Shown here in pieces: positions 1,309 through 28,217 of a DNA stretch of 38,785 bases. Position 1 is the first letter of the stretch. Every line of letters starts with the position of its first letter. Below the pieces are notes generated by a model. The model ran no database searches, was not told the origin of the DNA, and saw nothing but the letters and a program-made list of their open reading frames with translations. This DNA is from Patescibacteria group bacterium. GTDB lineage: Bacteria; Patescibacteriota; WWE3; 9FT-COMBO-53-11. A program made the position numbers and the translations under genes. The DNA lies in contig DATDSA010000010.1 in assembly GCA_035291485.1 (NCBI GenBank), positions 1 to 38,785 of the forward strand, given 5' to 3'.

Positions 1309-1352
1309 GAGGATTTGATAATCGGGTAGTCTTTTTATTATCCTAGAGGAGT

Positions 1353-1430
1353 AATGTACGGCTCGCTAAAGCGAACCTAGATTCGGCGAATGGCCGAATA
1401 ACGGCTCGCTAAAGCGAACCTAGCATTTTG
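1353..1430 (+). repeat. Two forward copies of the dispersed hairpin element, with a third hairpin between them
   Basis: The identical 23-mer ACGGCTCGCTAAAGCGAACCTAG occurs at 1358-1380 and 1401-1423. Between them lies the perfect hairpin ATTCGGC-gaatg-GCCGAAT (1381-1399). The second copy continues as TAGCATTTT. Confidence 0.85.
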
Positions 1431-1440
1431 AGAAAACAAA

Positions 1441-1650
1441 ATGAAAGAACAGCACGACCACAGCCAACCCACCCACACCGCCGGTTGCGACGCCTGTTCC
1501 TACGTCGCCGAGGTTCACGCCCACGGCGATGACGAAGCGGTAGACGCGCTGGTGCAGGATCTGGCGGCGCACAACAAGGCCGTCCACAACCAGGACACCG
1601 ACCCCGAAGCCATCAAAGATCCCGTTCGCGCCAAGATGAAGACCCTGTAG
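1441..1650 (+). CDS. Small DUF1059-like protein
   Basis: 69-aa ORF. The pattern C-x2-C followed by DDEAVDALVQDLAAHNKAVH resembles the DUF1059 layout. The next gene starts 4 nt after its stop. Confidence 0.5.
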   Translation: MKEQHDHSQPTHTAGCDACSYVAEVHAHGDDEAVDALVQDLAAHNKAVHNQDTDPEAIKDPVRAKMKTL

Positions 1651-1653
1651 GCA

Positions 1654-2523
1654 GTGTTTCCAATCATCGGAATTCTCACCGGAATCGGCTCGGCGGCGGG
1701 ATGGGGAGTGGGGGATTTCCTCGCCGGAAAATCCTCCCAAAAATCCGGCCCGTACCAAGCCGCCTTCCTCTCGGTTCTGTTCGGGCTAATTGTCACCGCC
1801 GTAATTTACCTCATTTTTGTCCGAGATTTCGGCATTCCATCCCCCGACATCTTCATCCGCCTCACAATTCTGGTTCTCGGCCTGTCGGCCGCCCAGATTC
1901 TGTTCTTTAAGGCCCTGGCGATCGGCCCGATCGGCATCGTCGCCACCATCGGCAGCGCTTATTCGTTGATCACCGTTCCTCTGGCGCTGGGATTGCTCGG
2001 CGAACAGCTCACCGTCGGCCAGCTGGCAGCGGTCGCCACGATTATTTTGGGAGTAATTTTGACCTCAATTCAGATCGGTGGAAAATCAGTCAAGCTCATC
2101 AGCAAGCGGGGGGTGATTCTGGCACTGGGGGCGATGATTATCTGGGGAGTATCTTTCGCTTTTCTCGATCCGGTCGTCGAAGCGCTGGGATGGGTTAAGG
2201 CCTTTTCGCTGGAATACGTCCTGACGGTTATTTGGGAACTAGTTATTCTGGGAGCGATGGGGATCAGCCTCCGCAAGCTGGTGGCGCCGGGATTCAATCG
2301 TTTGGTCGTGGCGAACTCGATCGCCTTTCTTTTCGGGAACGCCGCCTTCAACATCGGGCTGGAGAAGGGGCTGGTCTCAATCGTGACCCCGATCTCTTCG
2401 GCTTATCCAGTAATTACGGTTCTTCTCGCTTGGCTCTTCTTGAAAGAGCACCTCAAGAGGAACCAGCTCCTGGGGATCGCCCTCGTTATCACCGGAGTAA
2501 TTATCCTCGCCGTCTCCGGTTAA
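1654..2523 (+). CDS. EamA/DMT-family transporter
   Basis: 289 aa with about 10 hydrophobic segments in two similar halves. Gly/Ala-rich EamA-type helices. GTG start. Confidence 0.8.
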   Translation: MFPIIGILTGIGSAAGWGVGDFLAGKSSQKSGPYQAAFLSVLFGLIVTAVIYLIFVRDFGIPSPDIFIRLTILVLGLSAAQILFFKALAIGPIGIVATIGSAYSLITVPLALGLLGEQLTVGQLAAVATIILGVILTSIQIGGKSVKLISKRGVILALGAMIIWGVSFAFLDPVVEALGWVKAFSLEYVLTVIWELVILGAMGISLRKLVAPGFNRLVVANSIAFLFGNAAFNIGLEKGLVSIVTPISSAYPVITVLLAWLFLKEHLKRNQLLGIALVITGVIILAVSG

Positions 2524-2566: not shown

Positions 2567-4252
2567 GTGCCAAGGCGAAAGTTTCCGAAACTCGTCTTCG
2601 TTTCGGGTGGTGTGCTCTCCGGGTTAGGCAAAGGAATCACCACCGCATCCGTTTCTCTCCTCCTCAAATCCCGCGGCTATAAAGTCACCGCCATCAAGTG
2701 CGACATGTATCTCAATATCGACGCCGGCACGATGAACCCCGTTGAACACGGGGAGGTCTTCGTGACCGATGACCGGGCCGAGACCGACCAGGATATCGGC
2801 CACTACGAACGCTTTCTGAACGAGGACCTGCCGGGGAAGAATTACATCACCGCCGGCCAAGTCTACTACGAGGTCCTCCAGAGAGAACGGCGGCTGGAGT
2901 ACGGGGGAAGAACGATCGACGCCTACGAGGAGATCCCACCGGAGATCATCCGCCGAATAAAACAGGCGGCCCAGGGGTACGAGATCGCGGTGATCGAGCT
3001 GGGCGGAACGGTCGGTGAGTACCAGAACATCATGTTCTTCGAGGCCATCCGCCGGCTGAAGATCAAGGACCCCAGCTCGACCCTGCTGATCCACGTCGGC
3101 TACCTGCCGCTCCCGCCGACCCTGGGAGAGCCCAAATCGAAACCGATCCAACAATCCATTCAAGAACTGAACTCGCTCGGCCTTCGGCCGGATTTCGTTG
3201 TTGCCCGCTCGGAGAAACCGATCGACTTGAAGCGGAAGGAGAAAATCGCTTTCTCCGCCGCGATCGATCCCCAGGACGTAATCTCAAACCCCGATGTCAG
3301 CCCGGTCTACCGCGTCCCGCTGGTGCTGGAGGAGCAGGAGCTGGCGCGAAAGATCCTGCAAAGGTTCGGCTTGCGGTCCCGCGGCCGAAAACTCGGCGAA
3401 TGGAAGAATCTCATCAAAAGGATCGAAGGGGCTAGAAAACCGATCAGGATCGGTATGGTCGCCAAGTACATCTCCTCCGGCGATTTCACCCTGGAAGATT
3501 CCTACATCTGCGTCAACGAAGCGATCAAGCACGCCGCTTGGGAGCAAGGGCTGGATCCCCAGCTGGTTTGGATCGATTCCGAGAAGCTGGAGGAGATGGG
3601 AAAGAAGGAGTTTGAAGAAGCGCTCGCGGGCTTGGACGGGATGATCGTCCCGCAGGGGTGGGGGAGCCGGGGAACGGAGGGGAAGATCGGGGCGATCCGA
3701 TTCGCCCGAGAAAACAAAATCCCATACCTGGGGCTCTGTTTCGGAATGCAGATGGCGGTGGTCGAGTTCTCCCGCCACGTGCTGGGATTGAAGGACGCCC
3801 ACACCGCCGAGGCTGATCCCAAAACCAAGAACCCGGTGATCCACGTCATGCCGAACCAGGAGAAATACCTCCAGAATAGGCAGTACGGCGGGACGATCCG
3901 GCTCGGCGCTTGGAAGTGCGGGATTGAGCCCCGGACGCTACTGCGCCGGATCTACGACCGAGGGGTGGTCAGCGAACGGCACCGCCACCGCTACGAGCTG
4001 AACAACAAGTACCGCCAGCTGCTGGAGAAAAATGGAATGAGGTTGTCCGGATTATCGAGCGATAAGGAGCTGGTGGAAGCGATTGAGTTGGATCAAAAAA
4101 TTCATCCGTTCTTTCTGGGGGTACAATTCCATCCGGAATTAAAATCCCGGCCGTTGGCACCCCACCCTATTTTTAGGGAGTTTATGCGCGCCGCGAGCGG
4201 CGACGGAGGTAGAGACCGACCTCAAAAGCGAGGGCGGCGAAAAGCAGATTGA
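2567..4252 (+). CDS. pyrG: CTP synthase
   Basis: N-terminal FVSGGVLSGLGKGITTAS is present. The glutamine amidotransferase domain shows GLCFGMQ and HRHRYE motifs. 561 aa. Confidence 0.95.
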   Translation: MPRRKFPKLVFVSGGVLSGLGKGITTASVSLLLKSRGYKVTAIKCDMYLNIDAGTMNPVEHGEVFVTDDRAETDQDIGHYERFLNEDLPGKNYITAGQVYYEVLQRERRLEYGGRTIDAYEEIPPEIIRRIKQAAQGYEIAVIELGGTVGEYQNIMFFEAIRRLKIKDPSSTLLIHVGYLPLPPTLGEPKSKPIQQSIQELNSLGLRPDFVVARSEKPIDLKRKEKIAFSAAIDPQDVISNPDVSPVYRVPLVLEEQELARKILQRFGLRSRGRKLGEWKNLIKRIEGARKPIRIGMVAKYISSGDFTLEDSYICVNEAIKHAAWEQGLDPQLVWIDSEKLEEMGKKEFEEALAGLDGMIVPQGWGSRGTEGKIGAIRFARENKIPYLGLCFGMQMAVVEFSRHVLGLKDAHTAEADPKTKNPVIHVMPNQEKYLQNRQYGGTIRLGAWKCGIEPRTLLRRIYDRGVVSERHRHRYELNNKYRQLLEKNGMRLSGLSSDKELVEAIELDQKIHPFFLGVQFHPELKSRPLAPHPIFREFMRAASGDGGRDRPQKRGRRKAD

Positions 4253-7200
4253 CGAGCGGCATTCCGGTGGCGGGGAGAACTTCTCCTTCGTCTTCCTCAC
4301 CCAGGACATCCTGGTCGTTGTTGGTCACCGTACAGGTCTTTTCCTCACCGACCTTAATATCTCCAACACAGTCTTCCGAGTAGAAGGCGGTGTATCCGGC
4401 GACCGGCTCTTCCGTGACTTCATACTGACCGGCGTCGAGGTCAATGACGGTTCCGCCCTCGTTCCCGAAGAAAGCGATCGGGTCGGGATTCGTCGCGGCG
4501 ATAGACAGAGTAAAATCGCTAGCGATCTTGGTACCGGTGCTGTTGTTGACCACCCGCTTGATGACGGTGAGCTTGGGAGCAATATCGTCGTTGGTGATGG
4601 TGCAGGAGATGTTTTCGCCCTCATTCAGGGTAACGGTACCACCGAGAACCGAGGGACAGTCATCCTCACGCTCTTCACCGCCGGTGAGGGAAACGAAGGC
4701 GTACCCGAAGAGACCCGCTTCATTCAGCGCGTAGGGAGTGTTAGCGTCAACTTCCAGGGTCTGACCGGAGGTCACCGCGGTATCTCCAATGGTCAGGCCA
4801 AAATCATTCGGCCCCGCTGTACCACCGTCGAGATTGATGACTTCTTTGTAGAGGGTAATCGTGGGAGCGGTGTCGTCGTTGGTCACGGTGCAGGTTTCCG
4901 AACCACCGTTCGGAATAAACACTTCGCTGCAGTTGTCGTAGCTGGTTCCGTAACCATCCGCCGACTCTTCAGTCACGGTGTAGGTTCCCTGAGGAACGGG
5001 TATTTCCTTCAACGCCCCGTCATCCAAGAACGGTCCGGGTTCCAAACCGTTGACTTGGAAGTAGAAATCGGAACCATTCGCGTCGCCGCCGTTGTCGTTG
5101 ACGACAATTTTCTTCACAATTAGTGTTCCCGGCTGATCGTCGTTGGTGATGGTGCAGGTCTTGGACTCCCCGGGAAGAAGAGTGATATTCCCCTGCGCAT
5201 CGCAATCCTCACCCCAGGTAGAAGGAGCGTAGCCAAAAAGCGTGTCTTCGCTGACCGTGTAAGAACCCGCATCCACGAAATGAGAACCCCAGCTGGATTG
5301 AACAGCATCGATGTAGACGGAAAAATCATTTTCGGTTGCGGTGCCACCGTCATCGTTGGGAAGAACTTTAACCAAAGTGAGGGTGGAAGTTTCGTCATCG
5401 TTTAGGATGGTGCAAGTCATCGTTTCCCCCGGCAAAAGAGCTACTTCTCCTTGCGCGTTGCAATCCCCACCCCAAGAAAAGGGCGTGTAACCAGGAAGGG
5501 TGTCTTCACTAACTGTGTAGGTACCGGCATCTACTTGATGGGATCCCCAGCTGGATTGAACAGCATCGATGTAGACATTAAAGTCATTCTCGGTTGCAGT
5601 TCCGCCGTTATCGTTGGGGAGAATCTTCGCCAAAATAAGCGTCGCTTCCTCATCGTCGTTTACAATCGTACAGGTGACATCCTCAGCCAATCCTAGGGTA
5701 ATAACATTCCCGTTTAACTGCCCACCATCACACTGCCAATCGCTGGGAGTGTAGCCGGAAGGACCACCCGATTCGGACAAGGTATAGGGCTCTCCCGCCA
5801 AAACAGCCTGCGGTCCAACGGTCGGTCCTGACCCAGAAAAACCATCAGTTCCGGTGGCCTGTAACGTCCACTGATTCTCGTTGGCTTGACCACCATCATT
5901 GTTGGTCACTGTTTTGACCAAAGTAAGGGTAGGAGCGACATCATCATTGGTGATGGTGCAGGTTTTTTCGTCGCCGTAGGCCAAGCTAACGTTACCGTCC
6001 TCACAACCTTCACTAAACGTCACAAGGTAACCGGAGGGGTCGATTTCTAAGAAATCTTCCTCAAAAGATTGACTACCAACTTCTAATGTATACGTAGTCT
6101 CCCAAACCCTAAGAACATCATTAATATAAAGATCAAAATTATCTTCGGTTGCAGTACCGCCATTATCGTTAGGAAGCTCTTTGTAGACAGTTAGAGTCGG
6201 CAACTGGCCGTTAGTAAAAGTGCAAGTTATATCACCGCCCGCAGTAAGATCAATGGAATTAGGGTTAATCTCGTTGTTCACCCCATCCGAGCAGACTGCA
6301 CTAATCGGCGCCCAGCCTGTAACCGGATATTCAATTAGAGAATAGTTTCCCGGCAAAAGGTCAGGAAAAGTGTGGGGAGTTTGTTCATCGATCAACGAAG
6401 TAGAACCAGCACCACTCAAAGTAAAGTCAAAAGACTGATTTGAACCAGAAGGTATGGTAATTTTATCAACCGTGATTGAGCCGGGGTTAATTTCATTGGT
6501 GAAAGTGCAAGTGACATCCTCACCTTCAGGCAAGGGCAGTACAACGCTGTCATTCGATCCAGTTCCAATTGGATCACCATCTTCATCCAAACAGGCAACC
6601 GAGGTTGAATAGCTGGAACTGGTAACCTCGCTAAGCGTGTAACTATCTGGAGTAAGATTTCCAAATGTGTAATCCCCACCATCGATAATGTTGCTGGCAG
6701 TACCAACCAGGGAACTGTCGGAGGAGAGTTCCAAGTTAAAGTCCCAGGTACTTGAATCATCCGGAACAACATCCTTAACTACCGTTACGGTAGCGGGCGA
6801 GACTACCGCGTCAGCCGAAAGAGATTTATCAGTAGCTCCCAAATTACCAAGATCATCGTCCCCGTCATCATTAACATCGGCGTACCAACTTATTAAGCGC
6901 ATGTGGTATGGGGAACCATGGATGCCTCCCGCGGAATTTCCGATTCCCCAGTCAAGTTTAGAACCAAGATGACCACCCCAAGCCAAAATTGCGGTTGAGT
7001 TAGTAGCGGAAAAGGTTATATCGATGGTTGTCTCGGCCGCATCATCCGCCAAATCCCCTTGGGTGTTGTAGGCCATACTTGAAATTGCCCCGTTCCACAT
7101 GGACATCACCCGCTCACCAGCCGGCAATGCATTAAAACTAGTGGTGGGTTGACCGAAAACCGGAGATCCGGCAGAACTGGGAGCAGGAATTGCAAAAGTA

Positions 7201-7655
7201 CTAGAAGGAGCAGACCCATCGGTAACTCCAACGACCCCATCGGTAGGATCAACGGTTTCGGTCAAGTGCCCAAAGTAACCGTGGTCTTCCAATCTTTGAT
7301 ACTGGGTAAGAAAGTCAATCGCGTGGGCTCCGCTGTGTTTGATGTCGTAACCGATTGTTAAAGTGATAGGCTCACCGATCGGCAAATCCGTCAAAACAGC
7401 TCGATAGGATTGAGAGTATCCCTCTATTAAGTGAGAGTTTGAGCCTCCGGCATTACCGTTAAACCAAATCGGAGGAACATTGGGCAAAGCGGCAGAACCG
7501 TTACGCATCTGATCGAGATCAACATTTGAACTAAGGTCATCACCATCAGCGTAAACCGGTACGGGGAGATACGAGAAAATCCCAATAACATACTGGGACA
7601 GAAGAGTCAGCGAGGTAAAGAGCGAGAATAATTTTTCGCGCGTTTGCGTACGCAT
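4182..7655 (-). CDS. LPXTG-anchored cell-surface protein with about nine tandem beta-sandwich repeat domains
   Basis: A signal-peptide-like N-terminus is present. Nine modules each end in C-T-x-T/V/L-N-D/N-D, for example TCTITNDD, with NDNGGTAxxxDF cores. The C-terminus is LPATG plus a hydrophobic helix plus RRRSRRA. Confidence 0.85.
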   Translation of the reverse strand: MRTQTREKLFSLFTSLTLLSQYVIGIFSYLPVPVYADGDDLSSNVDLDQMRNGSAALPNVPPIWFNGNAGGSNSHLIEGYSQSYRAVLTDLPIGEPITLTIGYDIKHSGAHAIDFLTQYQRLEDHGYFGHLTETVDPTDGVVGVTDGSAPSSTFAIPAPSSAGSPVFGQPTTSFNALPAGERVMSMWNGAISSMAYNTQGDLADDAAETTIDITFSATNSTAILAWGGHLGSKLDWGIGNSAGGIHGSPYHMRLISWYADVNDDGDDDLGNLGATDKSLSADAVVSPATVTVVKDVVPDDSSTWDFNLELSSDSSLVGTASNIIDGGDYTFGNLTPDSYTLSEVTSSSYSTSVACLDEDGDPIGTGSNDSVVLPLPEGEDVTCTFTNEINPGSITVDKITIPSGSNQSFDFTLSGAGSTSLIDEQTPHTFPDLLPGNYSLIEYPVTGWAPISAVCSDGVNNEINPNSIDLTAGGDITCTFTNGQLPTLTVYKELPNDNGGTATEDNFDLYINDVLRVWETTYTLEVGSQSFEEDFLEIDPSGYLVTFSEGCEDGNVSLAYGDEKTCTITNDDVAPTLTLVKTVTNNDGGQANENQWTLQATGTDGFSGSGPTVGPQAVLAGEPYTLSESGGPSGYTPSDWQCDGGQLNGNVITLGLAEDVTCTIVNDDEEATLILAKILPNDNGGTATENDFNVYIDAVQSSWGSHQVDAGTYTVSEDTLPGYTPFSWGGDCNAQGEVALLPGETMTCTILNDDETSTLTLVKVLPNDDGGTATENDFSVYIDAVQSSWGSHFVDAGSYTVSEDTLFGYAPSTWGEDCDAQGNITLLPGESKTCTITNDDQPGTLIVKKIVVNDNGGDANGSDFYFQVNGLEPGPFLDDGALKEIPVPQGTYTVTEESADGYGTSYDNCSEVFIPNGGSETCTVTNDDTAPTITLYKEVINLDGGTAGPNDFGLTIGDTAVTSGQTLEVDANTPYALNEAGLFGYAFVSLTGGEEREDDCPSVLGGTVTLNEGENISCTITNDDIAPKLTVIKRVVNNSTGTKIASDFTLSIAATNPDPIAFFGNEGGTVIDLDAGQYEVTEEPVAGYTAFYSEDCVGDIKVGEEKTCTVTNNDQDVLGEEDEGEVLPATGMPLVNLLFAALAFEVGLYLRRRSRRA
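5135..5655 (-). repeat. Recent tandem duplication of one ~261-bp domain-coding unit inside the surface protein gene
   Basis: TLILAKILPNDNGGTATENDFNVYIDAVQSSWGSH... and TLTLVKVLPNDDGGTATENDFSVYIDAVQSSWGSH... are adjacent. By eye they are roughly three quarters identical at protein level, with long identical DNA runs. Confidence 0.8.
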
Positions 7656-7773: not shown

Positions 7774-8742
7774 ATGCCAATGCGCACCTGCGAATTCGTC
7801 TCGCCCAAACACCCCGACAAGCTCTGTGATTTCATCGCCGATTCGATTTTGGACGGTTTCTTGGCCGGTGACCCAAAGAGCCGGGTGGCGGTGGAACTCC
7901 TCGGCGGCCACGGCCGGGTCTTCGTCAGCGGGGAGGTGACCAGCGCCGCGGACGTGGACGTCGAAGCGCTGGTGAGGAAAACCGTCGGCGAGGACTACCA
8001 GATCGTCGTCAACATTTCCAAGCAGAGTCCCGAGATCTCGCGGGGAGTGGACACCGGCGGGGCGGGGGACCAGGGAATAATGATGGGCTACGCCACCAGC
8101 GAAACCGAGACCTCTATGCCGTTGGAGTACGAGACCGCCCGCAAACTCTGCCAGGACATATATAAGGAGTATCCCTACGACGGAAAAACTCAAGTAACCA
8201 TAGAGAGTAACGGAAGTAACAAGAGTAACCAAAGTGACTACCGAGTGACAACCGTGGTAGCGAGCTTTCAAAATACCAAAACCAAAGAACTGGAAGAGCT
8301 CGTTCGTTCCCTGATCAAGAGCGACTTATACCTTATTAATCCGGCGGGGGAATGGAACCTCGGCGGTTTTGATGCGGATTCGGGATTATCCGGGCGGAAG
8401 ATCGTCATCGACAACTACGGCCCCGAGATCGGCGTGGGCGGGGGATCGTTCTCCGGCAAGGACCCGACCAAGGTCGACCGAAGCGCCGCCTACATGTGCC
8501 GGCGGATCGCCGTCGACCTCCTCAAGAAACACAAAGCTAAGAAGGTGAAGACCAAGCTGGCCTACGCCATCGGGGTGAAGGACCCAGTGATGGCGGTCGC
8601 CGAGATCGACGGTCAAGAAACCCCGATCGAGGGCTACGACGTCACGCCCCGCGGAATTATTGAGTTGCTGAAACTCGACCAACCCATCTACGCCGAAACC
8701 GCTCGCTGGGGACATTTTGGGCGAAACTTTTCTTGGAGTTGA
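7774..8742 (+). CDS. metK: S-adenosylmethionine synthetase, compact 322-aa form
   Basis: Motifs KHPDKLCDFIAD, GAGDQGIMMGYA, GGGSFSGKDPTKVDRSAAY and the C-terminal WGHFGR are present. Confidence 0.9.
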   Translation: MPMRTCEFVSPKHPDKLCDFIADSILDGFLAGDPKSRVAVELLGGHGRVFVSGEVTSAADVDVEALVRKTVGEDYQIVVNISKQSPEISRGVDTGGAGDQGIMMGYATSETETSMPLEYETARKLCQDIYKEYPYDGKTQVTIESNGSNKSNQSDYRVTTVVASFQNTKTKELEELVRSLIKSDLYLINPAGEWNLGGFDADSGLSGRKIVIDNYGPEIGVGGGSFSGKDPTKVDRSAAYMCRRIAVDLLKKHKAKKVKTKLAYAIGVKDPVMAVAEIDGQETPIEGYDVTPRGIIELLKLDQPIYAETARWGHFGRNFSWS

Positions 8743-8746
8743 TGAC

Positions 8747-8782
8747 CAAAATGCTAGGTTCGCTTTAGCGAGCCGTCCAATA
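8747..8782 (-). repeat. Hairpin element copy, reverse orientation, 5 nt after the metK stop
   Basis: CAAAATGCTA-GGTTCGC-TTTA-GCGAGCC-GTCCAATA is the reverse complement of the copies at 1358-1430. Confidence 0.85.
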
Positions 8783-8826
8783 CGGTCGCGGGTTTTCCTG
8801 GGGCTAGGTGCTAAAATTTTCCCAGC

Positions 8827-8860
8827 ATGGACGGCCGCCTGCGGCGACCTAGCATTTTCG
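8827..8860 (+). repeat. Hairpin element copy, forward
   Basis: ATGGACGG / GGCCGCC-TGC-GGCGACC / TAGCATTTTCG. Confidence 0.85.
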
Positions 8861-8869
8861 CATTACTCA

Positions 8870-8905
8870 AATGGACGGCCCGGCTGTGCCGGACCTAGCA
8901 TTGTT
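8870..8905 (+). repeat. Hairpin element copy, forward, directly upstream of ychF
   Basis: AATGGACGG / GGCCCGGC-TGT-GCCGGACC / TAGCATTGTTCG. Confidence 0.85.
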
Positions 8906-8918
8906 CGCTTCGCTCACA

Positions 8919-10025
8919 ATGTCATTATCCGTCGGCATCGTTGGTTTACCCAACGTTGGAAAATCAACTCTTTTTAATGCGCTCTTGAAAAAGCAGGTCG
9001 CCTACGTCGCCAACTTCCCCTTCGCCACCATCGAGCCCAATGTGGGGATTGTCCCGGTCCCGGACCCCCGCCTCGACCAGCTCGCGCTCATAATCAAAGA
9101 GAGCGAGAGGATGGAAGATCTGCCGCCGAAAGTCCCCGCCACAGTTGAATTTTTGGACATCGCCGGCCTCATCGCCGGCGCCCACAAGGGAGAAGGGCTG
9201 GGAAACAAGTTCCTCGCCCACATCCGGGAAACGAACGTGGTCTGCCACGTCCTACGCGTCTTCACCGACCCCGAAATAATTCGGGAAGGAAGCGCCGATC
9301 CCCGCAGCGATTTCGAAACGGTGGAGACGGAGCTGAAGCTGGCCGATCTTCAAACGTTAGAGAAGCAGGCCGAACCAAAAGGAACAACCTCCAAAGAGGA
9401 CGCAATCCGCTGGCGGGCCGTTTCCAAGCTGAAAGAAGCTCTTCGAAAAGGAACCGCCGCCCGAGAGGTCCCCCTCGACGAAGGAGAACAGGAAGCCGCC
9501 CGGGCCCTCTCTCTGCTCACCGCCAAACCGATCCTGGTGGCACTCAACGTGGACGAGGCCGATCTCAAAAAAACCGAAGAGTCGGAGGAGAGATATTCCC
9601 AGGAGCTGGGAGTAGCACGAAATCAGGTCGTCACCATCTGCGCCAAGACCGAGGCCGAGCTGGCCGATCTCTCCCCGGAGGAACAGGCGGCTTACCTTAA
9701 GGAACTGGGAGTAGGGGAATCGGGGTTGGAGAAACTCATCCAACGAGCCTACGCCACCCTGGGGCTGATCAACTTCCTCACCGCCGGCACCATCGAGGTC
9801 CGAGCCTGGACGATCCAAAAGGGGACAGCCGCCCAACAGGCCGCCGGGGTCATCCACAGCGACTTCGAGAAGAGCTTCATCAAGGCGGACGTCGTTGACT
9901 TCGAAACCTTTGTGGAAGTGGGCGGTTGGCAGGCGGCGCGGGAGCAGGGAAAAGTCCGGTCGGAGGGCAAGGAGTATCTCGTCCAAGACGGAGAAGTGGT
10001 CGAGTTCAAGATCGGCGCCTCCTAG
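8919..10025 (+). CDS. ychF: Redox-regulated ATPase YchF
   Basis: MSLSVGIVGLPNVGKSTLFNAL P-loop is present. The C-terminal TGS-like region contains IHSDFEKSFIKA. The start is set at ATG 8919 because YchF proteins begin a few residues before GIVGLPNVGKS. Confidence 0.9.
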   Translation: MSLSVGIVGLPNVGKSTLFNALLKKQVAYVANFPFATIEPNVGIVPVPDPRLDQLALIIKESERMEDLPPKVPATVEFLDIAGLIAGAHKGEGLGNKFLAHIRETNVVCHVLRVFTDPEIIREGSADPRSDFETVETELKLADLQTLEKQAEPKGTTSKEDAIRWRAVSKLKEALRKGTAAREVPLDEGEQEAARALSLLTAKPILVALNVDEADLKKTEESEERYSQELGVARNQVVTICAKTEAELADLSPEEQAAYLKELGVGESGLEKLIQRAYATLGLINFLTAGTIEVRAWTIQKGTAAQQAAGVIHSDFEKSFIKADVVDFETFVEVGGWQAAREQGKVRSEGKEYLVQDGEVVEFKIGAS

Positions 10026-10029
10026 AGGT

Positions 10030-10058
10030 TTGACAGCCAACGCCGGCACCCCTATCAT
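10030..10058 (+). promoter_or_regulatory. Near-consensus sigma70-type promoter for the small ORF
   Basis: TTGACA (10030-10035), a 17-nt spacer and TATCAT (10053-10058), followed by AGGAGG at 10071-10076. Confidence 0.6.
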
Positions 10059-10081
10059 AGGAGCAGAGGAAGGAGGAAGAC

Positions 10082-10309
10082 GTGGGCTACGTTTACTTCG
10101 TCAGCTACGTGATCATGAGAGGGACCCTGGACGGAGGAAGGAACGACACCTTCGGGAACACGCGGTTGGTGCTCCCGCGGAAGATCAGCTCGATCACTCA
10201 GATCATCCAGGCCGAGAGATCGATCAGTCGGAGGAGGGAAGCGGTGATCCTCTTCTATCAGTACCTGGGGAAGGATACCAAGAAAAGAAAGAAACGATCT
10301 CTCAACTAG
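10082..10309 (+). CDS. Small basic hypothetical protein (75 aa), stand-alone transcription unit
   Basis: GTG start lies 5 nt after AGGAGG. The gene has its own promoter upstream and its own terminator downstream. No family recognised. Confidence 0.65.
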   Translation: MGYVYFVSYVIMRGTLDGGRNDTFGNTRLVLPRKISSITQIIQAERSISRRREAVILFYQYLGKDTKKRKKRSLN

Positions 10310-10317
10310 AACCACAC

Positions 10318-10346
10318 GCCGATGGACCAAAATCCCATCGGCTTTT
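10318..10346 (+). terminator. Rho-independent terminator of the small ORF
   Basis: GCCGATGG-accaaaatc-CCATCGGC is followed by TTTT. Confidence 0.7.
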
Positions 10347-10357
10347 CATTTGAGAAA

Positions 10358-10396
10358 AGCGAAAATGCTAAGTCGCCGCAGGCGGCCGTCGATTTG
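10358..10396 (-). repeat. Hairpin element copy, reverse orientation
   Basis: Its reverse complement ACGGCCGCCTGCGGCGACTTAGCATTTTCGCTTTTCTCAAATG is nearly identical to the copy at 8831-8873. Confidence 0.85.
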
Positions 10397-10583
10397 CTTT
10401 CTTCTCTCAAAAACGAGTAAAAATAGGGCGGGCGAGGTTTTCCTCTGCGGATCTCCTCGCCCTGAAAAGTTCAGAGATGTTTTCTCCCGTAAAATCGCTT
10501 CCCAAACGTCTCGAATTTTGATAGAATAAATAGGTTTGGTTTGCTCTGCCCCTAGCCACTAAACCCTAGTTTCCCTAATCGAG

Positions 10584-10620
10584 AAATGGACGGCTCGCTA
10601 ACGCGAACCTAGCATTTTCG
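10584..10620 (+). repeat. Hairpin element copy, forward, directly upstream of gyrA
   Basis: AATGGACGG / GGCTCGC-TAAC-GCGAACC / TAGCATTTTCGC. The gyrA ATG lies 22 nt after the T of TAGCAT. Confidence 0.85.
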
Positions 10621-10630
10621 CTTTGCTCAA

Positions 10631-13186
10631 ATGAAAGAAGAAAAAACACCCGAAATTCCCGAATTGCCCCAAGGAAAAATCCTCACCGTCCCCGTCACGG
10701 GGGAGATGGAAAAAGCCTATTTGGATTATGCGATGAGCGTCATCGTCGCCCGGGCCCTGCCGGACGTCCGCGATGGGCTGAAGCCGGTCCAGCGCCGCAT
10801 CATCTATGCGATGCACGAGCAGGGAATGAGCCCGACCACCAAATTCTCCAAATGCGCCGCGGTGGTTGGGGAAGTGATGAAAAAATTCCATCCCCACGGA
10901 GACATCTCCATCTATGATGCGCTCGTGAGAATGGCGCAGAATTTCTCGATGCGCTACCCCCTGGTCGACGGCCAGGGCAACTTCGGTTCGATCGACGGTG
11001 ATTCGCCGGCGGCGATGCGATATACCGAGTGCCGCCTCGCTCCCTTGACCGATGAACTCTTGGCGGACATTGGAAAGGAAACCGTTCTCTTCGGGCAAAA
11101 CTATGACGCGACTACGACCGAACCGAACGTTCTTCCCGCGGCAGTGCCGAACCTCCTCCTGAACGGTTCTTCCGGGATCGCGGTCGGAATGGCCACGAAC
11201 ATCCCCCCCCACAATCTGGGAGAGATTTTGGACGCCCTCGTGGCGATGGTGCAAGCGGCGAAAGTCTCCGGAGAAGTTGACCAGCACCAGGCCGACTACA
11301 GTCTTACGGTCGAGGACCTGATGCAGTTCGTTCCCGGCCCGGATTTTCCGACGGCCGCCTTGGTTTACGGGCAGGACGAGATCGCCCGGGGCTACGCCAC
11401 CGGCAAGGGGAGTGCCGTGATGCGCGCCAAAACCGAGATCACCGAGGAAGAAGGCCGGAATCGGATCATCGCCACCGAGCTGCCTTATCAAGTTAACAAG
11501 GCGACCCTCCTCGAAAGGATTGCCCAACTCGTAAAAGACGGGAAAGTAAAGGGGATCGGCGGCCTGCGGGACGAATCCGACCGCGACGGAATTAGGGTCG
11601 TCGTTGATCTCAAGAAGGAAGCTCGACCCCAGGCGGTCCTGAACTATCTCTTCAAGCACACCGAACTCCAAACCACCTTCCACATGAACATGGTCGCGCT
11701 TGTTGATGGGCAGCCGCAGACCCTGACGCTCAAAACCATCCTCGAAGAGTTTCTCAAACACCGCTACCAGGTCGTCCTCAAAAGGATAAGATTCTTACTC
11801 GGACAAGCCAAGCAACGTGAGCACATTCTGCAGGGATTAAAGATCGCCCTGGACCACCTCGACGAGGTAATCGCGACCATCAAGAAATCCGCCGACACCG
11901 ACGACGCTCGGACCAACTTGATGAAAAAGTTCGGCCTCACCGAAATCCAATCTCAGGCCATCCTGGACATGCCGCTCAAACGCCTTTCCGCCCTGGAGCG
12001 CGAGAAGATCGAGCAGGAGCTGAAGGATATCCTGGAAGAGATCAAACGCCTGGACCTGATAATTTCCAAACCGCAAAATATCTACCGGGAAGTCGAGAAA
12101 GAGCTCCAGGAAGTTAAAGAAACCTACGGTGATGAGCGCCGCACCAAAATCTTCAAGAAACGGATTGGGGAATTCAGCGAAGAGGAGTTGATCCCGGAAG
12201 AAGACGTCATTATCACGCTGACGGAGGATGGATACATCAAGCGCCTGCGGGAAGAGACCTACAAACGGCAGGGCCGGGGAGGAAAGGGCGTGGTCGGAAT
12301 GAAGACCAAAGAGGAGGATACGGTGGAACAGATCCTCCCTACCTCGACCCACGACGAGGTTCTCTTCTTCACCAACAAGGGGCGAGTCTATAAGCAGAAG
12401 GCTTACGAATTGCCCGAGGCAACTCGCCAATCAAAGGGCACGGCGATAGTCAACATTCTCGACCTGGAATCGGAGGAAAAAGTCGTGATCATGCTCCGCA
12501 TTCCCAAGAAAGACCTCAGACCAATCCATCTTTTCATGGCCACCGACCACGGCACTGTCAAGAAGACGGCGCTGACCGATTTTGAAAACATCCGCCGGAC
12601 GGGGATCATGGCGATCCGCCTTAAGCCCCAGGAGAATCTCATCTGGGTCAAACCGACCTCCGGTGAGAACGATATCGCCCTGGTGACCAGAATGGGCCAG
12701 TCCATCCGCTTCAAAGAGGCGGACGTCCGCTCCATGGGCCGAGCGGCGGCCGGCGTCCGCGGCATCAGAATCGGCAAAGGCGATGAAGTGATTGCGACCG
12801 AAGTGGTTGTCAATCCGAAGGACTACCTCCTCACGCTCTCCGAACGCGGGGTCGGCAAGCGCACCCGTCTCGCCGAGTACAAGACCCAGGGCCGGGGCGG
12901 TTCCGGTATCCTCACTCACCGCGTCACCGCCAAAACCGGTAAACTGGTCAGCGCCCGGATCGTCGAGGAAGCCAAACAGAACGACATGCTTCTTACCTCC
13001 CGCCGCGGCCAGGTGATTCGGCTTTCGCTCAAACAGGTGCCGATCCTGGGCCGAGCCACCCAAGGGGTTTATCTGATGCGCTTGAACGAAGGGGATTCCG
13101 TCTCGGCGGTTGCTTTCATGGAAGAGGGAGAGGAACCGGATGTGTTGCCTCCGAAAGAGGGAGAGGAAGAAGAAAAGCAGGAGTAA
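10631..13186 (+). CDS. gyrA: DNA gyrase subunit A
   Basis: Motifs [14 protein letters not shown], the active-site region AAMRYTE, and C-terminal beta-pinwheel repeats with QGRGGKG are present. 851 aa. Confidence 0.97.
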
Positions 13187-19332: not shown

Positions 19333-19449
19333 CGGTTTTGGGTAGATGGGGGAGTAAGCCGTTTTGCAATCTCTTGAAATGTGATTGTTCGCACTTTGTT
19401 GATTATATGAACCACAGTTTCAATTTACCGGACTCCCCTTCCTGATGTC

Positions 19450-19535
19450 AATAGGACGGCCGCTTGGGCGACCTAGCTATTGATAGCGATTCTCCGAATC
19501 GCGTCCAATAGGACGCCCTCCGGGTCCTACACGGG
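19450..19535. repeat. Three abutting hairpin-element copies (forward, reverse, forward)
   Basis: Copy 1 is AATAGGACGG/GGCCGC-TTGG-GCGACC/TAGCTA (19450-19479). Copy 2 is GATA/GCGATTC-TCC-GAATCGC/GTCCAATA (19481-19510, reverse type). Copy 3 is AATAGGAC/GCCC-TCC-GGGT/CCTAC (19507-19531). Copies 2 and 3 share GTCCAATAGGAC. Confidence 0.7.
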
Positions 19536-22920: not shown

Positions 22921-23844
22921 TTACCGAAGATCTTCTTCGTCCATTGGTTTCGCGGGTTTTCCACCGGAGGCGCCTGCCTGCGCAGGCAGGGATTTCGCGG
23001 CGCTCAACTTTGCTGGCTCTTCTTTCTTGACCTCTTTCACGGGAGCCTTTTCCACCTTAGCAGGTTCTTTCTTCGGAGCTGCTTTTTTAGCAAGAACTTC
23101 TTTCTTCTCTTCCGGCTTCACGGGCTTCCCCATAGAGATTTTTTTGTTATGGGCAATCTCCTCGGGAGTCCACACATCTCGGATTACACGAGCGGGCTTC
23201 TCCGTTGGTTTTTCCATCGGCCGAATCTCTTCTTTAGCTTTTTCGGGATGTTCGGTAGAGATTCTTTTGTTATGGGCAATCTCCTCGGGAGTCCACACAT
23301 CTCGGATTACACGAGCGGGCTTCTCGGGTTCGGAAACACCGCTGCCCGGCTTCCGGCCGATAATCTCCACTAATCCCGCAAAAGGAACGTTCCGCTGCCC
23401 TTTCGGAAGAATAATTTTGAGCTTGTCGCCCTCTTCCCCACCCCAGTAGCGGACCGCTCCCTGGATGAGCCGATAGGAACTATCCTTGGAGAGAGCCTCG
23501 AAGTGGCCATCCTTTACCGCCAGCTGAGCTTCCTGCTCCTCGCGTTCCATCTCCTCCAAAAGCTTAAAGCGCCGGCCCTCCGGGCCCTCCACCATCTTTA
23601 GTTTGTCACCGTAGACCAGCTTGGTTTTCGCGGAATAGTTGTCGGGAACGGGATATTTTTTACCGGCTTCGGTGACCATAAACATCCCGTCGTACTTGCC
23701 GACCAAACCGGGCATTTCGGGAGTACCGCTGCGGTGTTCTATTTCAGAAATGAGTTGTTTGGCTAAATTGAGAGAAGAGGACGCGGCGTTCAGCGCCTGG
23801 TTCAAAAGCTGGATTTTATCTTTCCCCCCGTGCCTCTCTTCCAT
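22921..23844 (-). CDS. Hypothetical protein with a coiled N-terminus, two beta-rich modules, an exact internal repeat and a Lys/Pro/Ala-rich tail
   Basis: ATG 23844 lies 13 nt after the ATPase stop. The motif YPVPDNYSAKTKLVYGDKLKM is present. EKPARVIRDVWTPEEIAHNK occurs twice. The tail is KKAAPKKEPAKVEKAPVKEVKKEEPAK. The part of the track ORF upstream of 23844 overlaps the ATPase gene. Confidence 0.7.
   Translation of the reverse strand: MEERHGGKDKIQLLNQALNAASSSLNLAKQLISEIEHRSGTPEMPGLVGKYDGMFMVTEAGKKYPVPDNYSAKTKLVYGDKLKMVEGPEGRRFKLLEEMEREEQEAQLAVKDGHFEALSKDSSYRLIQGAVRYWGGEEGDKLKIILPKGQRNVPFAGLVEIIGRKPGSGVSEPEKPARVIRDVWTPEEIAHNKRISTEHPEKAKEEIRPMEKPTEKPARVIRDVWTPEEIAHNKKISMGKPVKPEEKKEVLAKKAAPKKEPAKVEKAPVKEVKKEEPAKLSAAKSLPAQAGASGGKPAKPMDEEDLR
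23133..23325 (-). repeat. Two 70-nt direct repeats with a 123-nt period inside the CDS
   Basis: 23133-23202 and 23256-23325 differ at one position (T/C) by my alignment. Confidence 0.9.
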
Positions 23845-23857
23845 TGAAAAGATTCTA

Positions 23858-26766: not shown

Positions 26767-26896
26767 CACATTCCTCTCTGATCTAGGATAGTTTAAATAT
26801 ACCAGACTATAGGATAAAAGTCAAGCCCAGGCCGACCTACCCCAATCCAGATAAACAGCGGATTTTTTCTCCCCGCCAAATAAGCTAAAATGGTTC

Positions 26897-26934
26897 CGTG
26901 GACGGCTCAGCTTCGTTGAACCTAGCATTTTTAA
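26897..26934 (+). repeat. Hairpin element copy, forward, directly upstream of the HAD hydrolase gene
   Basis: CGTGGACGG / GGCTCAGC-TTC-GTTGAACC / TAGCATTTTT. The ATG lies 22 nt after the T of TAGCAT. Confidence 0.8.
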
Positions 26935-26944
26935 AGAAACAAAA

Positions 26945-27601
26945 ATGAAAGCAGTAATCTTTGACCTCGATGGGACCCTGATCAACAACGAGTGGATCTA
27001 CGACCAGGCTTACTGTGTGGTCCTGAAAAGTTTGAACATTTCCTGCGACCAGCTCAATCACATCCCCGGAATCGGGCTTCAGGAAAACTGGGAAAGAATG
27101 GTTAATGATCTGGGCATCAAAAAAACCTCCGCCGAACTCGCCGCCCAGACTCGAGATGCCTACCTGCAAAATATCAACAAAGTCAAACTGAGGGATGGGG
27201 CCCGGGAGTTAATCTTCGATCTCAAAAGAAAACACACCCTGGCCATCCTCGGTACCTCCACCGGCAAAGAAACAGCAACCCAAGTCCTCCAGCAGATCGG
27301 GGCCGAAAAATTATTTGATTTCACCGTTTTCGGGGACGAAGTGGAGAACAAGAAACCGGCTCCCGATATCTTTCTTAAAGCGATGGACAAAGCGGGAATT
27401 CTGCCTCGGGAGACCATTGTGATCGAGGACTCGGCGGCCGGCGTCGAGGCCGGCAAGGCGGCCGGAGCCAAAGTGATTGCCATCAAGACGGATTGGTACA
27501 CCCGCGACCAGCTCTTTCGGGCCGATTTTATCGCCGATGATTTCGCCCACATCCTCGACCTTATCAAAAACGAGAAGACGCTCGATCACTCAACCGGGTA
27601 G
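26945..27601 (+). CDS. HAD-superfamily hydrolase (beta-phosphoglucomutase-like subfamily IA)
   Basis: Motifs MKAVIFDLDGTLINNE, GTSTGKE, KKPAPDIFL and IEDSAAGVEAGKAAG are present. Confidence 0.85.
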   Translation: MKAVIFDLDGTLINNEWIYDQAYCVVLKSLNISCDQLNHIPGIGLQENWERMVNDLGIKKTSAELAAQTRDAYLQNINKVKLRDGARELIFDLKRKHTLAILGTSTGKETATQVLQQIGAEKLFDFTVFGDEVENKKPAPDIFLKAMDKAGILPRETIVIEDSAAGVEAGKAAGAKVIAIKTDWYTRDQLFRADFIADDFAHILDLIKNEKTLDHSTG

Positions 27602-27720: not shown

Positions 27721-27807
27721 AAACAGAGTTAGGGACCTGCGAGAGTGCTGACCCCGTTAGTTGGACCGCCTCTCTGTGTGCTCCCTTCGAGAGGTGGTGA
27801 AAATCAC

Positions 27808-28185
27808 TTGAGTCAAAAATTATACGTTGGCAATCTTCCCTGGGCAACCACGGGTGATGATCTTAATAAGATGTTCGCCGAGGTTGGCAAGGTGGAGGAT
27901 GCCGTAATCATCAGCTACAAAGACACCGGCCGCTCCAAGGGTTTCGGTTTCGTGACGATGAAAGACGACGACGCCGCCGAAGAAGCAGTTAAGAAATTCA
28001 ACGGCTTCGAGTTGGAGGGACGTGCCCTGATCGTCGACAAAGCCCGCCCAATGCGCGAAGAAGGTGAAGGTGGTGGAGAATCTCCCGCTGGCGGTGAAAC
28101 TCCGGCTGAAGGAGAAGCTCCTGCTACCGGTGAAGCCCCCGCCGCTGAGGAAACTCCGGCTGCTGAAGAAACTCCCGCTGCTTAA
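27808..28185 (+). CDS. RRM-type RNA-binding protein with an acidic Pro/Ala/Glu repeat tail
   Basis: TTG start follows GAGAGGTGGTGA. RNP-2 is LYVGNL and RNP-1 is KGFGFVTM. The tail is GETPAEGEAPATGEAPAAEETPAAEETPAA. Confidence 0.85.
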   Translation: MSQKLYVGNLPWATTGDDLNKMFAEVGKVEDAVIISYKDTGRSKGFGFVTMKDDDAAEEAVKKFNGFELEGRALIVDKARPMREEGEGGGESPAGGETPAEGEAPATGEAPAAEETPAAEETPAA

Positions 28186-28217
28186 GCGGGACGTTTTAAA
28201 GCTGTTATAGTTCTAAT

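Follow-up and report, generated by a model that had tools for sequence, protein, structure and literature searches.

Tiny two-hairpin repeats on start codons in an uncultured WWE3 clade: a probable miniature mobile element

We describe a family of tiny two-hairpin repeats in a 38,785-nt stretch of DNA, hereafter the window, which is contig DATDSA010000010.1 (assembly GCA_035291485.1) of a Patescibacteria group bacterium of the WWE3 lineage. Comparison with orthologous empty sites in close relatives demonstrates that units of 42-48 nt have been inserted exactly at the native ATG of genes. We conclude, with a probability of roughly 0.6, that the element is a lineage-specific, non-autonomous miniature mobile element, palindromic and of the repetitive extragenic palindrome (REP) or IS200-derived kind. 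Small palindromic repeats have been known for 40 years, and how they move and choose their sites is mostly unclear; the genomes of the candidate phyla radiation are tiny and thought to be poor in repetitive DNA. The family, which is limited to a narrow uncultured WWE3 clade, is previously undescribed.

Read on the strand of an earlier consensus, given in a first-pass annotation of the window, the unit is larger than first described and runs A / GAC / hairpin 1 / TAG / B / loop / A', measuring 37-50 nt (mode 44) from GAC to the last base of A'. Re-reading of the window sequence located the boxes and hairpins where that annotation had placed them. Of 68 copies, 65 have the GAC box and 61 the TAG box. 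Hairpin 1 is GC-rich, 13-24 nt long (mode 17) and contains 6-8 pairs; with the boxes, A and B, the core amounts to about 38 nt. Segment B (5-8 nt) lies directly 3' of TAG, and A' is its reverse complement, the two forming hairpin 2. Starting from the base that follows TAG, five or more Watson-Crick pairs can be formed in hairpin 2 in 62 of 67 copies, and seven or more in 37. In 29 of the 67, the 30 nt downstream contain an exact complement of the first 7 nt of B (3.9% for shuffled queries). Hairpin 2 has a short, purine-rich loop that is often Shine-Dalgarno (SD)-like (e.g. GAAGAAA, GGAGAA, AAGGAGGG and GAGGAAA).

A' is also a direct copy of A, an exact repeat of A occurring within 30 nt downstream in 12 of 67 copies compared with 1.1% for shuffled queries. 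Since A matches A', A is complementary to B as well. Exact complementarity between the final triplet of A and the opening triplet of B is seen in 45 of 68 copies (ATG/CAT, TTG/CAA, TAG/CTA and AAG/CTT), and four further copies pair AAG with TTT through a G-T wobble. ATG/CAT is the inner end of a covarying helix A:B, which runs to 5-7 pairs. The outer boxes had previously been called invariant; GAC and TAG are indeed conserved, but ATG and CAT belong to this helix and are swapped for TTG/CAA, TAG/CTA, AAG/CTT or AAG/TTT. The main subfamily has CATTTT as B and AAAATG as both A and A'; in the others B begins with CAA, CTA, CTT or TTT and the flanks end in TTG, TAG or AAG. In tandem arrays, with a period of 40-44 nt, the A' of one unit doubles as the A of the next. 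A CRISPR-like array was rejected, each period being the same sequence with no unique spacers. A mini-open reading frame starting from the upstream ATG (ATG GAC GGC ... TAG) was likewise discarded, as it is in frame only with 18-nt hairpins; because hairpin length varies over 13-24 nt and not in multiples of three, its frame is not conserved.

The strict pattern GACGG-N8-30-CTAGC occurs six times in the window against 1.4 expected, and none of 100 shuffles reached six. A covariance model made from an alignment of 40 copies, with search filters off, yielded 11 matches in the window, one of which (28243-28288, reverse strand) had not been listed before. Nine of the 11 copies listed in the first-pass annotation score with expectation values (E) from 4e-13 to 1e-3; the reverse copy at 19481-19510 is weak (E 0.83) and by eye a genuine diverged unit, while the one at 19507-19531 is a degenerate remnant that the model leaves unscored. 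The 11 matches together with this remnant (19505-19533) give a density of 12 copies in 38.8 kb. The corresponding figure of about 300 copies per Mb is only an extrapolation; for a REP, more than 100 copies per genome would be expected.

Covariation was measured on two sets, of 40 and 61 sequences, against 500 shuffles and slid registers. Paired cells make up 83.5% and 81.0% of the two sets, compared with 65% and 61% after shuffling, and the covariation scores are 0.46 and 0.43, compared with 0.15 and 0.14; no shuffle out of 500 scored as high, and every slid register scored 0.10 or less. The earlier observation of compensatory stem changes is therefore upheld far beyond chance, and the covariation covers both the GC-rich stem and the outer helix, the latter being new here. 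The element had also been left unplaced in any named repeat or RNA family, which agrees with the lack of any match among the 4227 covariance models of Rfam, at gathering thresholds on the whole window and at E up to 10 on positions 8700-8960. A scan of the window for tRNA and tmRNA returned nothing.

A duplex site for a transcription factor is ruled out by the compensatory stem changes. Since covariation is unexplained by a duplex protein-binding site, selection or origin on a folded single strand is a reasonable reading, as had been proposed. The wobble argument given for it has fared less well. The third stem position, described as always C opposite A, is so in the listed window copies except two degenerate ones at 19481-19531, but across the family in only 53 of 68, the remainder being T-A, G-C, C-G or G-T. 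Hairpin 1 is more stable on the antisense strand (mean -9.1 kcal/mol) than on the sense strand in 64 of 68 copies, wholly owing to this one position. Elsewhere G-T and A-C oppositions are balanced (12 versus 9 in hairpin 1 and 3 versus 4 in hairpin 2), so that nothing here marks an RNA of a single polarity. The stems are near-perfect DNA palindromes carrying one conserved, strand-marking irregularity. In the IS608 and REP systems, the latter served by REP-associated tyrosine transposases (RAYT), proteins acting on single-stranded DNA hairpins discriminate strands by hairpin irregularities, and we infer that the conserved irregularity may be a mark of this type. Folded as RNA, some copies are predicted to form hairpins 1 and 2, which pairs the ATG, and others a long hairpin closed by A:B; the z-scores are modest, between -2.4 and +0.1.

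The unit has a strong relation to gene starts. An open reading frame (ORF) of at least 60 codons begins 17-20 nt past TAG in 29 of 68 copies, the ATG of A' being its start codon. Window genes that start in this way are a DUF1059 gene (1441), ychF (8919), gyrA (10631) and a HAD hydrolase gene (26945). The downstream genes in related genomes, named from N-terminal sequences, include rpsI, rpsQ, rpmC, rplT, rpsK, nusA, prfB, rsmH, gatB, gatC, ftsZ, rny, pheT and yebC. Several units lie within ribosomal-protein operons; in the alpha operon of LDXK01, each spacer holds one unit, in either orientation. Members of the non-ATG subfamilies occur beside intrinsic terminators, in the space separating convergent genes, or antisense within operon spacers. 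Upstream of A a native SD sequence often remains (e.g. GAGGAGTAATG followed directly by TAC at 1346, or GGGAGAGAAAAATG followed by GAC in locus L013), and a native stop-start overlap is retained upstream of some units, as in TAATG followed by GAC. Because native promoter-like sites lie upstream of the ychF and gyrA units (Table 1), the units are presumably transcribed as part of the leader or operon.

That all copies are intergenic, as had been stated, is nearly right. The newly found copy at 28236-28284 lies in frame in codons 7-22 of a 380-aa ORF (28218-29360) with a signal-peptide-like N-terminus and no Pfam match, and the distal arm of the copy at 8747 is formed by the last metK codons, the partner of its B, CCAAAATG, being antisense to the GHFG codons (8713-8720). 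A diverged copy is present at L038 4718-4766, at the place equivalent to window 28236-28284. A crude ORF-based gene caller made several false "inside ORF" calls in this DNA of 55% G+C, and the start-codon and ortholog analyses were used instead.

The evidence for mobility comes from filled and empty orthologous sites. At ychF the window carries two units and its closest relative, L041 (YchF 90% identical), carries none, although the reverse copy after metK is kept there. The junction reads ...ggttagaataatctcctatatATGtcacta in L041 and ...ggtgctaaaattttcccagcATG, unit 1, unit 2 (ending CACAATG) and tcatta in the window, with homology ending at 8809 and restarting at 8919. At gyrA the window has a unit where L041, L042 and L025 have an empty site; pheT, rpsK, rpsQ, yebC and rplT each show a filled site in one genome and an empty one in another. 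Different subfamilies occupy the same site in different genomes at rplT and at the HAD gene, MEUW01 carries two units at rpmC where LDXK01 carries one, and the tail and A' of the second ychF unit recur at the HAD gene of L038. In all filled/empty comparisons the protein N-terminus has the same length. A unit at a native start thus displaces the old translation signals about 45 nt upstream and supplies a new ATG, the frame being restored without an added codon. At ychF, gyrA, pheT, rpsQ, rpsK and yebC the insertion is located 3' of a fixed short target, in one orientation and with no duplication beyond the motif, the boundary being ambiguous by the shared 3-6 nt. A 42-nt unit before rpsQ in MEUW01 (L004, about 1500-1830, reverse strand) overlaps rpmC and is read through in frame: L29 has 93 aa there versus 78 aa in LDXK01 (L024), 15 residues more, the read-through peptide being NGRPQKRPSILKKQN.

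One unit also coincides with a larger rearrangement. Between ychF and gyrA, 379 bp of the window (10025-10403) take the place of a 268-aa gene of L041, L042 and L025 (L041 2422-3229), and homology restarts at 10404, exactly at the edge of a reverse unit, so that the indel boundary is the unit edge. From its sequence, the replaced gene product looks ATP-cone-like at the N-terminus and restriction-endonuclease-fold-like at the C-terminus. The replacement DNA has a strong promoter-like site (TTGACA, 17-nt spacer, TATCAT) at 10030-10058.

If the unit is a miniature mobile element, either pairing with B or a match to the element's own 3' end would determine where it inserts, in the manner of single-strand HUH transposases such as those of IS200/IS605 and RAYT. 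Putative recognition marks for a protein could be the GAC and TAG boxes, together with the C-A irregularity. The unit's own ATG, placed after an SD-like purine loop, would take over the translation start, and insertion into essential genes may thereby occur without breaking them. In transcribed leaders, A:B pairing might bury the decoy native ATG, or B:A' pairing the working one, with a possible effect on translation or mRNA stability. RNA-switch or portable-promoter functions are possible as added roles, and none of the rival roles discussed below excludes a mobile origin. We propose only tentatively, with the odds against it, the more specific model of a guide-directed miniature transposon, in which the 5-8 nt of B would select the site by pairing, a change in B would retarget the element (ATG, TTG, TAG and AAG classes), the dominant class would hit start codons while bringing a spare ribosome-binding loop and ATG, and the enzyme would be of an unrecognised kind in candidate phyla radiation genomes. 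Such an element, if the model is true, would colonise essential, highly expressed genes at no cost.

Several observations weigh against a mobile origin of this kind. No transposase domain was detected among the window ORFs scanned against Pfam, and 258 kb of clade DNA, a fraction of each genome, contains no Y1/RAYT or IS200 TnpA homologue: with E. coli RayT as query, phmmer gave no match at E up to 10 and the best tblastn match had E 0.096, and an IS200 TnpA query found no homologue. Read on the strand that has the flank on its 5' side, the putative guide B comes 3' of hairpin 1, and not 5' as in IS608. Instead of reflecting target choice, the complementarity of A and B could stem from selection after insertion to hide a decoy ATG. 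Sharing of the ATG leaves the unit boundary ambiguous. Finally, codon 2 differs in most filled/empty pairs (e.g. gyrA GTA to AAA, pheT CTG to AAA), which a clean insertion after the ATG does not account for; either the unit reaches past its ATG, or codon 2 was re-selected after displacement of the native SD. With a unit present, codon 2 is often AAA or Ser (window 10631, L020:4415, L012:6545, L014:2436, L004:1506 and L034:3155, versus the empty orthologues).

The units nevertheless provide filled and empty sites at nucleotide level, and hence evidence on how palindromic repeats move and choose sites. The three-way rule that relates flank, internal segment and 3' end looks like programmable target recognition, and a selfish insertion would be made harmless by replacing the very start codon on which it lands. 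If the alternative pairings affect translation, one leader module would be common to about a quarter of these organisms' genes.

The distribution of the family is narrow. A pattern scan of representative genomes returned 40 loci, 26 of them from three uncultured genomes, namely candidate division WWE3 bacterium RBG_19FT_COMBO_53_11 (MEUW01), candidate division WWE3 bacterium CSP1-7 (LDXK01) and a Patescibacteria bin (JBBDZL01); the rest, in Sorangium, Bacillus and others, are chance matches that occur singly. The covariance model identified 61 copies in 26 loci of the three WWE3 genomes (205 kb, picked for containing a copy). The window represents a fourth genome of the same clade, since it is about 80% identical to MEUW01 where aligned. 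Searching 493 kb around ychF homologues on 80 metagenome contigs (YchF 59-90% identical) gave only two matches, both in the two closest relatives, and because of this the family appears to be confined to a narrow clade. Identical units are dispersed across the three other genomes at unrelated loci, and copy number and subfamily differ from genome to genome. A full-text literature search found no paper connecting the candidate phyla radiation or Patescibacteria with REP, miniature inverted-repeat transposable elements or RAYT. The units are among the few lineage-specific non-coding features described for bacteria of this radiation.

Among known systems, single-strand transposition of the IS200/IS605 group, reportedly described by Barabas and colleagues in 2008 and by He and colleagues in 2015, offers a close parallel: insertion is orientation-specific, directly 3' of a short specific sequence and without classical target duplication, cleavage sites are recognised by pairing with a short internal guide beside an imperfect hairpin, and irregularities mark the active strand. 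In the WWE3 unit, however, one guide would serve both ends, so that the flank equals the element's 3' end, the putative guide is 3' of the hairpin, and not a tetranucleotide 5' of the hairpin foot that pairs with the cleavage sites, and the unit is only about 45 nt long, with no TnpA or TnpB found.

The earlier suspicion that the element is REP-like was a good lead, as palindrome size, GC-rich stem and compensatory subfamilies are shared with REPs. At about 35 nt, or 38 nt if A and B are counted, the palindromic core is within the 20-40 bp range used for REPs, with a GC-rich stem of 6-8 bp and a short loop; the subfamilies show compensatory stem changes and are lineage-specific; unpaired bases at the stem foot are conserved, the bottom strand reading CTAG-stem...stem-CGTC; and the density is high (12 in 38.8 kb), with singletons, inverted pairs and clusters. 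REP elements tagged GTAG or CGTC have been distinguished, the CGTC type having no known dedicated transposase (Di Nocera et al. 2013, PMC3733652), as is the case for the WWE3 units. The usual location of REPs is downstream of genes, where the neighbouring ORFs are co-directional or convergent, the stems of the four CGTC families begin with A-T pairs, and head-to-tail arrays are rare (PMC3733652). In contrast, the WWE3 units sit mainly on start codons in sense orientation (29 of 68 end in a start codon), only minor subfamilies lying by terminators or convergent ends; the tag is CTAG and not GTAG; the stem starts with G-C, unlike CGTC families 1-4; a second hairpin, the flanking direct repeat A = A' and an own ATG are present; and head-to-tail arrays are common, with no RAYT in the 258 kb searched, whereas a REPtron has its RAYT gene flanked by REPs. 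Because of these differences in position, tag, stem composition, second hairpin, direct repeat, arrays and RAYT, we do not file the unit in any described REP family.

Other small repeats resemble the unit in part. Rickettsia palindromic elements (RPE) and mycobacterial interspersed repetitive units (MIRU) are likewise tolerated in or beside coding sequence by keeping frame, as are the 42-nt unit at rpmC and the copy in codons 7-22 of the ORF at 28218. RPEs, however, are 100-150 bp and inserted inside ORFs. MIRUs, which Supply and colleagues are said to have placed in 1997 between operon genes, overlapping stop and start codons, encode small in-frame ORFs, whereas the upstream-ATG mini-ORF of the WWE3 unit is not frame-conserved. 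Integron attC sites also have an outer helix of conserved sequence, an unpaired central spacer, a variable inner helix with a conserved irregularity and a variable loop, conserving structure over sequence and marking one strand; they differ in being 57-141 nt long and in following gene cassettes beside an integron integrase, while the WWE3 units have no cassettes and housekeeping neighbours, the only nearby recombinase being an ordinary XerC/D-like one. A dif- or attC-like site of that recombinase was rejected, since its gene is of the conserved housekeeping type, at the same locus in MEUW01, and the units are genome-wide and without cassettes. Neisseria REP2 is much longer than the WWE3 unit. 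REP2 and the Borrelia IR are dispersed directly upstream of ORFs and comprise two internal stem-loops, a ribosome-binding site, the ATG of the downstream gene and possibly a promoter, with 23-26 REP2 copies per genome (Delihas 2011, PMC3184786). The WWE3 units share the position directly upstream of ORFs, the two stem-loops, the loop resembling a ribosome-binding site and the gene's ATG; but REP2 is linked to one regulon, and the WWE3 units are only about 45 nt, roughly ten times denser and also located away from gene starts. Covarying stems, a flank/guide relation and empty sites are not reported for REP2 in the review (PMC3184786).

We considered whether the unit is, instead of a mobile element, a translational switch in the 5' untranslated region, in which B:A' pairing would hide the start (OFF) and B:A pairing would form a long hairpin closed over a GAC/UAG internal loop and free the start (ON), a protein or ligand binding the loop, with a housekeeping regulon across the clade. 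The ability of B to pair with A as well as with A' is the classic mark of mutually exclusive helices, folding predicts both conformations, at similar energies from copy to copy, and the units lie downstream of native promoter-like sites and are hence transcribed. The purine-rich, SD-like loop of hairpin 2, the highly expressed housekeeping genes downstream and an RRM-domain RNA-binding protein encoded in the window are in line with such regulation. We nonetheless consider it unlikely, because the same genes are expressed without a unit in close relatives, many copies have no downstream gene or are antisense to the operon, arrayed between convergent genes or inside ORFs, and identical units at unrelated loci imply proliferation rather than gene-specific evolution. 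Moreover, G-U does not exceed A-C outside a single position that is itself a mismatch in the sense RNA, and the fold z-scores are modest.

A portable expression cassette in the style of Neisseria REP2 and the Borrelia IR, for which repeats bearing promoter, ribosome-binding site and ATG upstream of genes are a precedent (PMC3184786), would read TGGACG as -35, TAGCAT as -10, the hairpin as spacer, and then the loop resembling a ribosome-binding site and the ATG, so that spread of the unit supplies promoters. Both hexamers match four of six positions of TTGACA and TATAAT, respectively, keeping T-12, A-11 and T-7, 57 of 68 copies have an implied spacer of 15-18 nt (16-18 nt in sigma-70 promoters), and the 14-17 nt from TAGCAT to ATG are akin to the very short native leaders here. 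Yet a promoter needs neither a covarying hairpin nor A-B covariation; the 8/12 consensus matches are under the scan threshold and not called, whereas the native gyrA site is; native promoters look extended -10 (TGnTAnAAT), and the units have no TG; the non-ATG subfamilies have TAGCTA or TAGCAA without the essential final T; and units occur in tight ribosomal-protein operons, tandem arrays and antisense orientation. We regard this role as quite improbable. An element of RNA punctuation or stability, as proposed for classical REPs, whose hairpins would guard against 3' exonucleases or 5' decay, or terminate transcription, without any mobility, seems very improbable. A GC-rich hairpin between operon cistrons, the copy just past the metK stop that L041 keeps with an altered loop, and the stability of antisense hairpin 1 (on average -9.1 kcal/mol) would suit it. 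However, it leaves the start-codon coincidence, the direct repeat A = A' and the presence/absence polymorphism unexplained, and units are found midway in essential operons in both orientations. Terminators were rejected in particular, because no T-run follows the stem, TAG and B intervening, the test for intrinsic terminators called no unit terminator-like, and units are placed inside ribosomal-protein operons.

Table 1. Units and associated sites in the window; layouts are given on the strand of each unit, and the last column gives the covariance model match with its E value or other support.
Feature	Coordinates	Strand	Layout	Model match or support
Unit 1 of tandem pair, upstream of DUF1059 gene	1350-1399	+	A AGTAATG (native SD GAGGAG and ATG), TAC box, hairpin 1 1360-1377, TAG 1378-1380, B ATTCGGC, A' GCCGAAT	1346-1394, E 3e-7
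Unit 2 of tandem pair	1393-1443	+	AAC box, hairpin 1 1403-1420, TAG 1421-1423, B CATTTTG, loop AGAAAA, A' CAAAATG; ATG 1441-1443 starts DUF1059 ORF	1401-1423, E 1e-3
Reverse unit just past metK stop; same site in L041	8713-8784	-	A CGTATTG 8778-8784, GAC 8775-8777, hairpin 1 8757-8774, TAG 8754-8756, B CATTTTG 8747-8753	8740-8788, E 8e-10
Extended -10 element of ychF, probable native promoter (predicted)	8809-8817	+	TGCTAAAAT (L041: TAGAAT)	Consensus and between-genome conservation
First ychF unit, at native ychF ATG; absent from L041, L042, L025	8823-8873	+	A CAGCATG, GAC 8830-8832, hairpin 1 8833-8849, TAG 8850-8852, B CATTTTC, A' TCAAATG	8819-8866, E 6e-11
Second ychF unit, different subfamily	8867-8921	+	GAC 8874-8876, hairpin 1 8877-8895, TAG 8896-8898, B CATTGTT, A' CACAATG; ATG 8919-8921 is ychF start	8870-8902, E 9e-8
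Reverse unit at gene-replacement indel edge, no ORF after it	10347-10397	-	A GCAAATC, GAC 10388-10390, hairpin 1 10371-10387, TAG (in cTTAG) 10368-10370, B CATTTTC, A' TCAAATG	10354-10401, E 6e-10
Native gyrA promoter-like site, upstream of gyrA unit	10499-10527	+	TTCCCA, 17-nt spacer, TG, TAGAAT	Kept in L025 and L041
Unit at gyrA start; site empty in L041, L042, L025	10582-10633	+	A AGAAATG, GAC 10589-10591, hairpin 1 10592-10609, TAG 10610-10612, B CATTTTC, A' TCAAATG with ATG 10631-10633	10578-10626, E 4e-13
TAG/CTA-subfamily unit, its tail itself a nested reverse unit	19448-19511	+	A TCAATAG, GAC, hairpin 1 19458-19473, TAG, B CTATTGA, A' CCAATAG	19444-19490, E 4e-7
Nested reverse unit, diverged	19477-19511	-	CTATTG GAC GCGATTCGGAGAATCGC TAT CAATAG; hairpin GCGATTC-GGA-GAATCGC	19469-19516, E 0.83 (weak)
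Degenerate remnant	19505-19533	+	CCAATAG GAC GCCC TCC GGGT CC TAC	Unscored by covariance model
Unit at HAD hydrolase start	26894-26947	+	A TTCCGTG (native GTG, 6 nt past TAAAAT -10-like hexamer), GAC 26901-26903, hairpin 1 26904-26922, TAG 26923-26925, B CATTTTT, A' AAAAATG with ATG 26945-26947	26890-26939, E 1e-7
Additional AAG/CTT-subfamily copy	28236-28284	-	A AGCAAAG, GAC, hairpin 1 28260-28274, TAG, B CTTTCTA, A' CTAGAAAG	28243-28288, E 1e-3

The native leaders of the clade look very short and often have no SD sequence (window 8809-8829 and 26881-26900; L041 1297-1318). At the HAD gene the -10-like TAAAAT lies 6 nt before the GTG, and the ychF ATG is preceded at 9-12 nt by -10-like hexamers, which suggests that leaderless or near-leaderless mRNAs may occur in the clade. 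Upstream of gyrA, a GC-rich hairpin (GGGCGAGG...CCTCGCCC) is located at 10430-10462; both this hairpin and the extended -10 site at 10499-10527 are kept in L025 and L041 despite differing flanks.

The RRM_1-domain RNA-binding protein of the window (27745-28185, 146 aa) has a C-terminal tandem hexapeptide repeat of the GE(T/A)PA type (18-nt period, 28057-28197). RRM proteins are uncommon in bacteria, and this one could in principle bind the units. The S-adenosylmethionine synthetase ORF (metK, 7774-8742) has only 322 aa, with shortened N-terminal and central domain matches, and is either a reduced MetK or an ORF with a mis-placed start. On the reverse strand, 4182-7655 encodes a 1157-aa surface-protein-like ORF with about seven tandem prealbumin-fold domains of the SpaA/Cna_B type (DNA repeat period 258-288 nt). 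A 100-nt direct repeat, 85% identical (23103-23202 and 23226-23325), is an internal coding duplication inside the ORF at 22921-24024 (reverse strand, no Pfam match).

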